64,000 nucleotides of DNA, from the NCBI RefSeq assembly GCF_057098645.1, contig NZ_CM169472.1; one strand, 5' to 3'. The notes beneath the pieces are model-generated. The model saw only the letters and a program-made list of their open reading frames with translations, ran no database searches and was not told the DNA's origin. Positions within the stretch are counted from its first letter, which is position 1; each line of letters begins with the position of its first letter. The translations under genes were made by a program, and so were the position numbers. Positions 4,579 to 4,707 of this stretch are shown here, piece after piece.

Positions 4579-4707
4579 GAGATTTCCTCCAGTTTCCTGC
4601 CTGGAGTATAGGCAACGGCTGCGCACTCTTCACCGCTAAATTCAGCAGATTGCGAGACGCCTTCCAAAGAGATTTAAGTGCCGGGCGACAGGCACCCGGC
4701 AAAGGGA

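Follow-up and report, generated by a model that had tools for sequence, protein, structure and literature searches.

The yjgR-ahr junction without idn genes in Escherichia coli: breakpoints, spacer, and distribution of an idn-less allele

The yjgR-ahr slot in described strains and in the window

The subsidiary pathway GntII comprises the gluconate kinase IdnK, the L-idonate 5-dehydrogenase IdnD, the 5-ketogluconate reductase IdnO, the transporter IdnT, and the regulator IdnR. In the annotated K-12 derivative DH5alpha, the gene order is lptG, yjgR, idnR idnT idnO idnD, idnK, ahr, leuX. This arrangement agrees with the original prediction, which had placed idnK and idnDOTR between yjgR and ahr in K-12; the circumstance that would have counted against it, a K-12 idn cluster located away from both genes, is not what the DH5alpha annotation displays. 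The K-12 module is annotated with these five metabolic and regulatory genes only and holds no mobility genes. E. coli Nissle 1917 is without idnK-idnDOTR, K-12 and CFT073 have the cluster, and growth of Nissle 1917 on both gluconate and 5-ketogluconate has been reported (PMC7924626). In the ST131 strains JJ1886 and S250, idnK is absent (PMC5369007); the same study calls the other idn genes "present" in both strains, a statement that is hard to reconcile with loss of the entire module. Pangenome tables from a study of the pks island treat idnO, idnD, idnR, idnK, and idnT as accessory genes, with frequencies of 83% and ~31% in two genome sets (PMC8545132) that we read as pks+ and pks-. In Salmonella, idnT and idnO are present (PMC6054384). 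Finally, of two recombination hotspots reported for E. coli, the leuX-fimH region is one (Touchon et al. 2009, as summarized in PMC2621348).

We examined a 64-kb stretch of E. coli DNA from contig NZ_CM169472.1, hereafter the window. Its gene order is lptF (734-1834) and lptG (1831-2916) on the plus strand, yjgR (3077-4578) and ahr (5727-4708) on the minus strand, and leuX (5923-6007) on the plus strand. The start codon of yjgR (complement, 4578) is separated from the stop codon of ahr (4708) by exactly 129 bp (4579-4707), and the predicted adjacency of the two genes at about 130 bp was thus borne out to the nucleotide. A tblastn search with the five K-12 Idn proteins (E ≤ 1e-20) returned no homolog of idnK, idnD, idnO, idnT, or idnR across the entire 64-kb window, as predicted from the missing module, and the same search recovered all five idn genes in the locus of Citrobacter sp. 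FP75. The GntII cluster is therefore absent from the window as a set of genes, and the position between yjgR and ahr where it would be located is occupied by 129 bp without a conserved open reading frame (ORF) or known RNA. What the window does hold is a contiguous yjgR-ahr junction with a 90-bp allele-specific spacer, the features that define the idn-less allele. We consider it highly probable (roughly 0.92) that the window carries one allele, the idn-less one, of a long-standing presence/absence polymorphism in the yjgR-ahr slot; the 129-bp distance between the two genes would then reflect a strain carrying the common allele without the five-gene idn cluster.

Both flanking genes are readily recognized. 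The gene yjgR encodes a HerA-like ATPase (Pfam HerA_C, E = 2e-239; annotation in colinear RefSeq genomes), and its product, read from the ATG at 4578-4576, is 98.4% identical to K-12 YjgR over residues 1 to 440. The gene is frameshifted in the window: the frame opened at ATG 4578 stops at 3253, giving 441 amino acids versus 500, and the cause is a G run at ~3271-3275 with 5 G versus 6 G in the closest genomes. Seven complete genomes carry the 5-G allele at 100% identity over 181 bp, namely, five labeled O145 and strains 95-3192 and USDA-ARS-USMARC-51408 (serotype not given); O145 RM9872 has 6 G. The frameshift may mark a pseudogene specific to this lineage or else be a homopolymer sequencing error that recurs. 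The gene ahr (yjgB), encoding an NADPH-dependent aldehyde reductase (tblastn, Pfam ADH_N and ADH_zinc_N, colinear annotation), is intact at 339 amino acids, with 98.8% tblastn identity to K-12 Ahr over the full length. Beyond it lies leuX, a tRNA-Leu(CAA) gene (ARAGORN, Rfam tRNA) that serves as an integration site, followed by a P4-type integrase gene (6160-7446; Pfam integrase domains).

This integrase belongs to a P4-like satellite prophage at leuX that spans 6160-16350 of the window and includes homologs of psu (10338-10910) and ogr/delta (10984-11484), both named by colinearity with strain Z1323HEC0422, the closest genome. Between int and psu is a type II restriction-modification pair consisting of a restriction endonuclease (7912-8730; PADLOC REase_II, E = 5e-198) and its partner C5 cytosine methylase (8768-10021); Z1323HEC0422 has different genes at this position. 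From ~16350 to 59800, the window is 99.7 to 99.97% colinear with what is annotated in Z1323HEC0422 as a defense island, comprising type II Zorya genes (zorA2/zorB2/zorE), a STY4851/ECs_5259-family protein with giant DEAD/DEAH helicases, and, ahead of nanM/nanC, a phosphorothioated-DNA-binding restriction endonuclease. Two window segments, ~13716-16350 and 38912-45152, are absent from Z1323HEC0422.

Breakpoints and anatomy of the spacer

In blastn alignments, homology to K-12 ends at window position 4617 (..TATAGGCAACG) and restarts at 4708, the ahr stop codon. K-12 has 5,087 bp where the window has the 90-bp segment at 4618-4707. A blastn-short search of that segment against K-12 found no counterpart beyond chance 9- to 14-mers, and the possibility that it contains an idn remnant was rejected when searches against both K-12 and Citrobacter FP75 yielded only such chance-level matches. 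Since 90 bp without a K-12 counterpart occupies the place of the 5,087-bp module, the alignments indicate that the idn+ and idn-less states are alternative alleles that replace each other, with no clean deletion in either direction. Nor does the variable segment resemble the excision scar of a mobile genomic island, as we found no att sites or direct repeats and no integrase or transposase within it. No repeats flank the junctions apart from a marginally significant 12-nt motif, CCGGCAAAGRGA, which occurs in the spacer where it adjoins ahr and in the K-12 module where it adjoins yjgR (matched by 14 of 2,000 shuffles); in the Citrobacter pair the motif was not reproduced, with 201 of 2,000 shuffles doing equally well.

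The spacer consists of two parts. The yjgR-proximal 39 bp (4579-4617, minus strand) is common to idn-less and idn+ alleles, as delimited by blastn breakpoints, cross-genus alignments, and RNA folding. Within it are the Shine-Dalgarno sequence GGAGG, a short inverted repeat, and a conserved element, GTTGCCTATACT. The inverted repeat, CTCCAG/CTGGAG (4587-4592 and 4601-4606), lies just upstream of the yjgR start codon and is found in both idn alleles and in Citrobacter; in the yjgR mRNA its 3' arm overlaps the Shine-Dalgarno sequence, and the repeat could sequester the yjgR ribosome-binding site. The remaining 90 bp (4618-4707, not assigned to a strand), defined by blastn and spacer alignments, is specific to the idn-less allele and stands in place of the K-12 idn module. 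RNA folding predicts within it a hairpin with a 9-bp stem, UGCCGGGUG/CGCCCGGCA (4679-4701, minus strand), which begins 7 nt past the ahr stop codon on the ahr strand and is overlapped in a slightly different register by a terminator-like scan match (4697-4676). Given its position and predicted fold, this hairpin is likely an intrinsic terminator of ahr. No Rfam family was found in the spacer (the sole match of the scan was tRNA-Leu), a small-ORF listing gave only mechanical ORFs in 4579-4707, and a sigma-70 consensus scan of the spacer detected no promoter-like site for yjgR. Across eight idn-less E. coli sequences the 129-bp spacer differs by 0 to 3.9%, with four of the eight (the window and three RefSeq genomes) identical.

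Frequency and flanking diversity among E. coli genomes

We asked how often this junction occurs by searching 5,426 complete E. coli genomes with a 531-bp probe across yjgR-ahr, counting matches to at least 80% of the probe. The original prediction had proposed a synteny comparison with K-12 and other E. coli genomes, and that comparison places the contiguous junction in 3,211 of the genomes (59%), including O157:H7 RM8376; in O111:H8 2009C-3675, yjgR and ahr are annotated as adjacent. The K-12 idn module was found in 2,055 genomes (38%), always on the chromosome and in 1,961 cases at ≥99% identity to K-12; idn+ genomes include K-12, O104:H4, and one ST1193 strain. Reproduced in 3,211 complete genomes, the adjacency is not a matter of chance, and with 59% of genomes the idn-less state is the majority state, neither an unusual loss nor a strain-specific deletion. 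A recent deletion of idn from a K-12-like ancestor of this strain would be consistent with a gap located exactly at the K-12 idn site. However, the 90 bp at 4618-4707 has no K-12 counterpart and the same spacer recurs in 59% of complete genomes, in E. albertii, and, in diverged form, in C. werkmanii, and we regard such a deletion as very improbable.

The probe was split into two places in ~2,014 genomes, a number close to the 2,055 idn+ genomes, which suggests that genomes with idn carry it at this site and that those with the contiguous junction are without it. Furthermore, idn was located at the yjgR-ahr site in seven of seven idn+ loci inspected. On both grounds, idn is presumably also missing from the rest of this strain's genome beyond the 64-kb window.

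The remaining ~160 genomes include further deletions and at least one assembly artifact. Two of the unusual loci were considered as possible additional states and rejected. MEI4B-1023, a candidate for a third type of cargo, has the idn-less allele with an extra deletion into ahr. In MLI104K2 (NZ_CP116925.1), a candidate intermediate with a decayed idnR, yjgR and ahr are separated by ~930 bp of homopolymer-rich junk (8395-9322 of locus L004), annotated as a hypothetical protein and a LacI-family pseudogene in a RefSeq "complete" genome; this is most likely an assembly or polishing artifact over the idn region. Collapse or skipping of the idn region during assembly might likewise be invoked for the window, and MLI104K2 demonstrates that homopolymer junk does occur at this locus in a "complete" genome. 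Nothing specific in the window points to such an error, however, and with its junction 100% identical over 531 bp to that of O145 RM9872 and contiguous in 3,211 independent complete genomes, we give this explanation almost no credence.

The genes on either side of the spacer proved to be unusually diverse. We compared yjgR and ahr in 15 E. coli loci (8 idn-less and 7 idn+), lptFG in 9 loci, and the module in the 7 idn+ loci. Pairwise DNA differences reach 6.7% in yjgR and 6.2% in ahr, compared to 0.4 to 1.7% among distinct alleles of the adjacent lptFG and 0.1 to 1.0% in the idn module of the seven diverse idn+ loci. Among the 15 loci, yjgR and ahr alleles are mosaic between flanks and do not sort by idn state. 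For example, the idn-less strain G4/9 and the idn+ strain JNEC-KY208 have yjgR genes that differ by 0.0% over 1.5 kb and share a YjgR protein accession, while their ahr genes differ by 4.7%. In these 15 sampled genomes, the mosaic pattern fits frequent homologous exchange, and idn alleles may have been exchanged between lineages by homologous recombination in the flank genes, which adjoin leuX and lie close to the leuX-fimH hotspot (PMC2621348). Alternatively, the two alleles could constitute a long-lived, cross-genus polymorphism under balancing or niche-dependent selection, for instance through the availability of L-idonate or 5-ketogluconate, in which case the diversity of yjgR and ahr would be a linked footprint of selection and not a by-product of the leuX hotspot; we consider this unlikely.

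Outgroups, ancestry, and comparison with described systems

Relatives of the locus were collected by a YjgR search of genome contigs. Among the matches listed, the close relatives were E. albertii, two Citrobacter, two Enterobacter, Leclercia, and Yersinia; Salmonella and E. fergusonii were not among them. The E. albertii type strain has ahr next to yjgR, with a homologous spacer that is 5.4% diverged from that of the window. The same is true of Citrobacter werkmanii at 23% divergence, with a different G+C-rich inverted repeat at the position of the ahr hairpin (read by eye from the alignment, not folded). Citrobacter sp. FP75, by comparison, carries idnK-idnDOTR in the same order as K-12, with proteins 80 to 96% identical to those of K-12, a left junction at the same nucleotide (..TATAGGCAA(C/T)|G), and a right junction at the ahr stop codon. 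Both alleles, with the same boundaries, are thus found in Escherichia and Citrobacter, which argues for a polymorphism that is old and crosses genera. In Enterobacter cloacae DSM 26481, the slot holds a gene for a fused Dak1/Dak2 (dihydroxyacetone kinase-like) protein of 548 amino acids (Pfam; 8217-9863 of locus L008). A similar gap of ~1.9 kb is found in Leclercia and Enterobacter sp. Ag1, and its yjgR-proximal sequence is like that of E. cloacae. In Enterobacter and Leclercia, GAATTTA lies upstream of GTTGCCTATACT at the same spacing as in the idn-less allele. Judged from these loci, the yjgR-ahr slot has at least three alternative contents across the Enterobacteriaceae.

Which of the two E. 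coli alleles is ancestral can be argued in either direction. The idn-less spacer may be the older state, with the idn module inserted just downstream of ahr, accompanied by loss of ~77 bp, and then spread by recombination. A G+C content of 47.3% in the module compared to 54 to 56% in the flanks is consistent with this scenario, as are module differences of 0.1 to 1.0% among seven idn+ strains where yjgR and ahr reach 6 to 7%, and the absence of idn from the E. albertii type strain and C. werkmanii. The occurrence of the 12-nt motif CCGGCAAAGRGA at one end of both spacer and module (14 of 2,000 shuffles) might be a trace of such an insertion, and the spacing of GAATTTA to GTTGCCTATACT upstream of yjgR provides a weak resemblance to Enterobacter and Leclercia. 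The module, however, has neither mobility genes nor flanking repeats, its divergence between E. coli and Citrobacter (20%) is about that of the flanks (17 to 18%), as would be expected for vertical descent, the Citrobacter pair does not reproduce the motif (201 of 2,000 shuffles), and idnT and idnO are also found in Salmonella (PMC6054384). We therefore hold an idn-less ancestor only tentatively, at slightly below even odds.

In the reverse history, idn+ would have been ancestral to the group of Escherichia, Citrobacter, and Salmonella, and the idn-less allele would have a single origin in an old deletion or replacement, followed by exchange. The idn junctions of Citrobacter FP75 and E. coli are identical, with divergence matching that of the flanks, and the Salmonella idn genes (PMC6054384) are as this history would predict. 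Yet no source for the 90-bp spacer is detectable in the idn+ allele of K-12 or of FP75, the G+C content and low diversity of the module better fit a later arrival, and the slot in Enterobacter and Leclercia holds a different gene (the Dak kinase, identified in E. cloacae). An idn+ ancestor is likewise a possibility that does not quite reach an even chance.

The idn-less state is an old allele with its own conserved spacer, common to E. albertii and Citrobacter, and is not a deletion scar. Pangenome "gene loss" calls at this locus should accordingly not be tallied as independent deletions. From what is known of GntI and GntII, the idn-less allele would be expected to abolish L-idonate catabolism via IdnD, IdnO, and IdnT and to remove the second gluconate kinase, IdnK, along with the regulator IdnR; gluconate use would probably be kept via GntI (gntT, gntU, and gntK) elsewhere in the genome. 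Metabolic models of idn-less strains should omit the GntII reactions, i.e., L-idonate uptake and oxidation, 5-ketogluconate reduction, and the IdnK kinase reaction. The polymorphism matters little beyond strain typing and metabolic modeling.

Compared to the K-12 GntII locus idnK-idnDOTR, the window presents the same slot with the same flank genes in the same orientations (lptF, lptG, and yjgR on one side; ahr and leuX on the other) but is without all five idn genes and has instead the 90-bp segment with its terminator-like hairpin. With the leuX-fimH hotspot, as summarized in PMC2621348, the locus shares alternative content between conserved flanks, mosaic alleles, and raised diversity beside leuX. 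It differs in that the idn module itself is without an integrase, att repeats, or mobility genes, and the P4-like element integrated at leuX is a separate neighboring feature, not part of the idn module. The published idn-less strains Nissle 1917 and JJ1886/S250, as well as O157:H7, O145, and O111:H8 genomes in RefSeq, have the yjgR-ahr adjacency in common with the window. Nothing of substance differs from these strains, and the window adds a yjgR frameshift common to a few O145 genomes. The presence or absence of idn is, in sum, an ordinary, documented accessory-gene polymorphism that was already known. To it, the present analysis adds the exact breakpoints, the 90-bp spacer and its hairpin, the frequencies of 59% and 38%, and the finding that both alleles and their junctions are common to Citrobacter.
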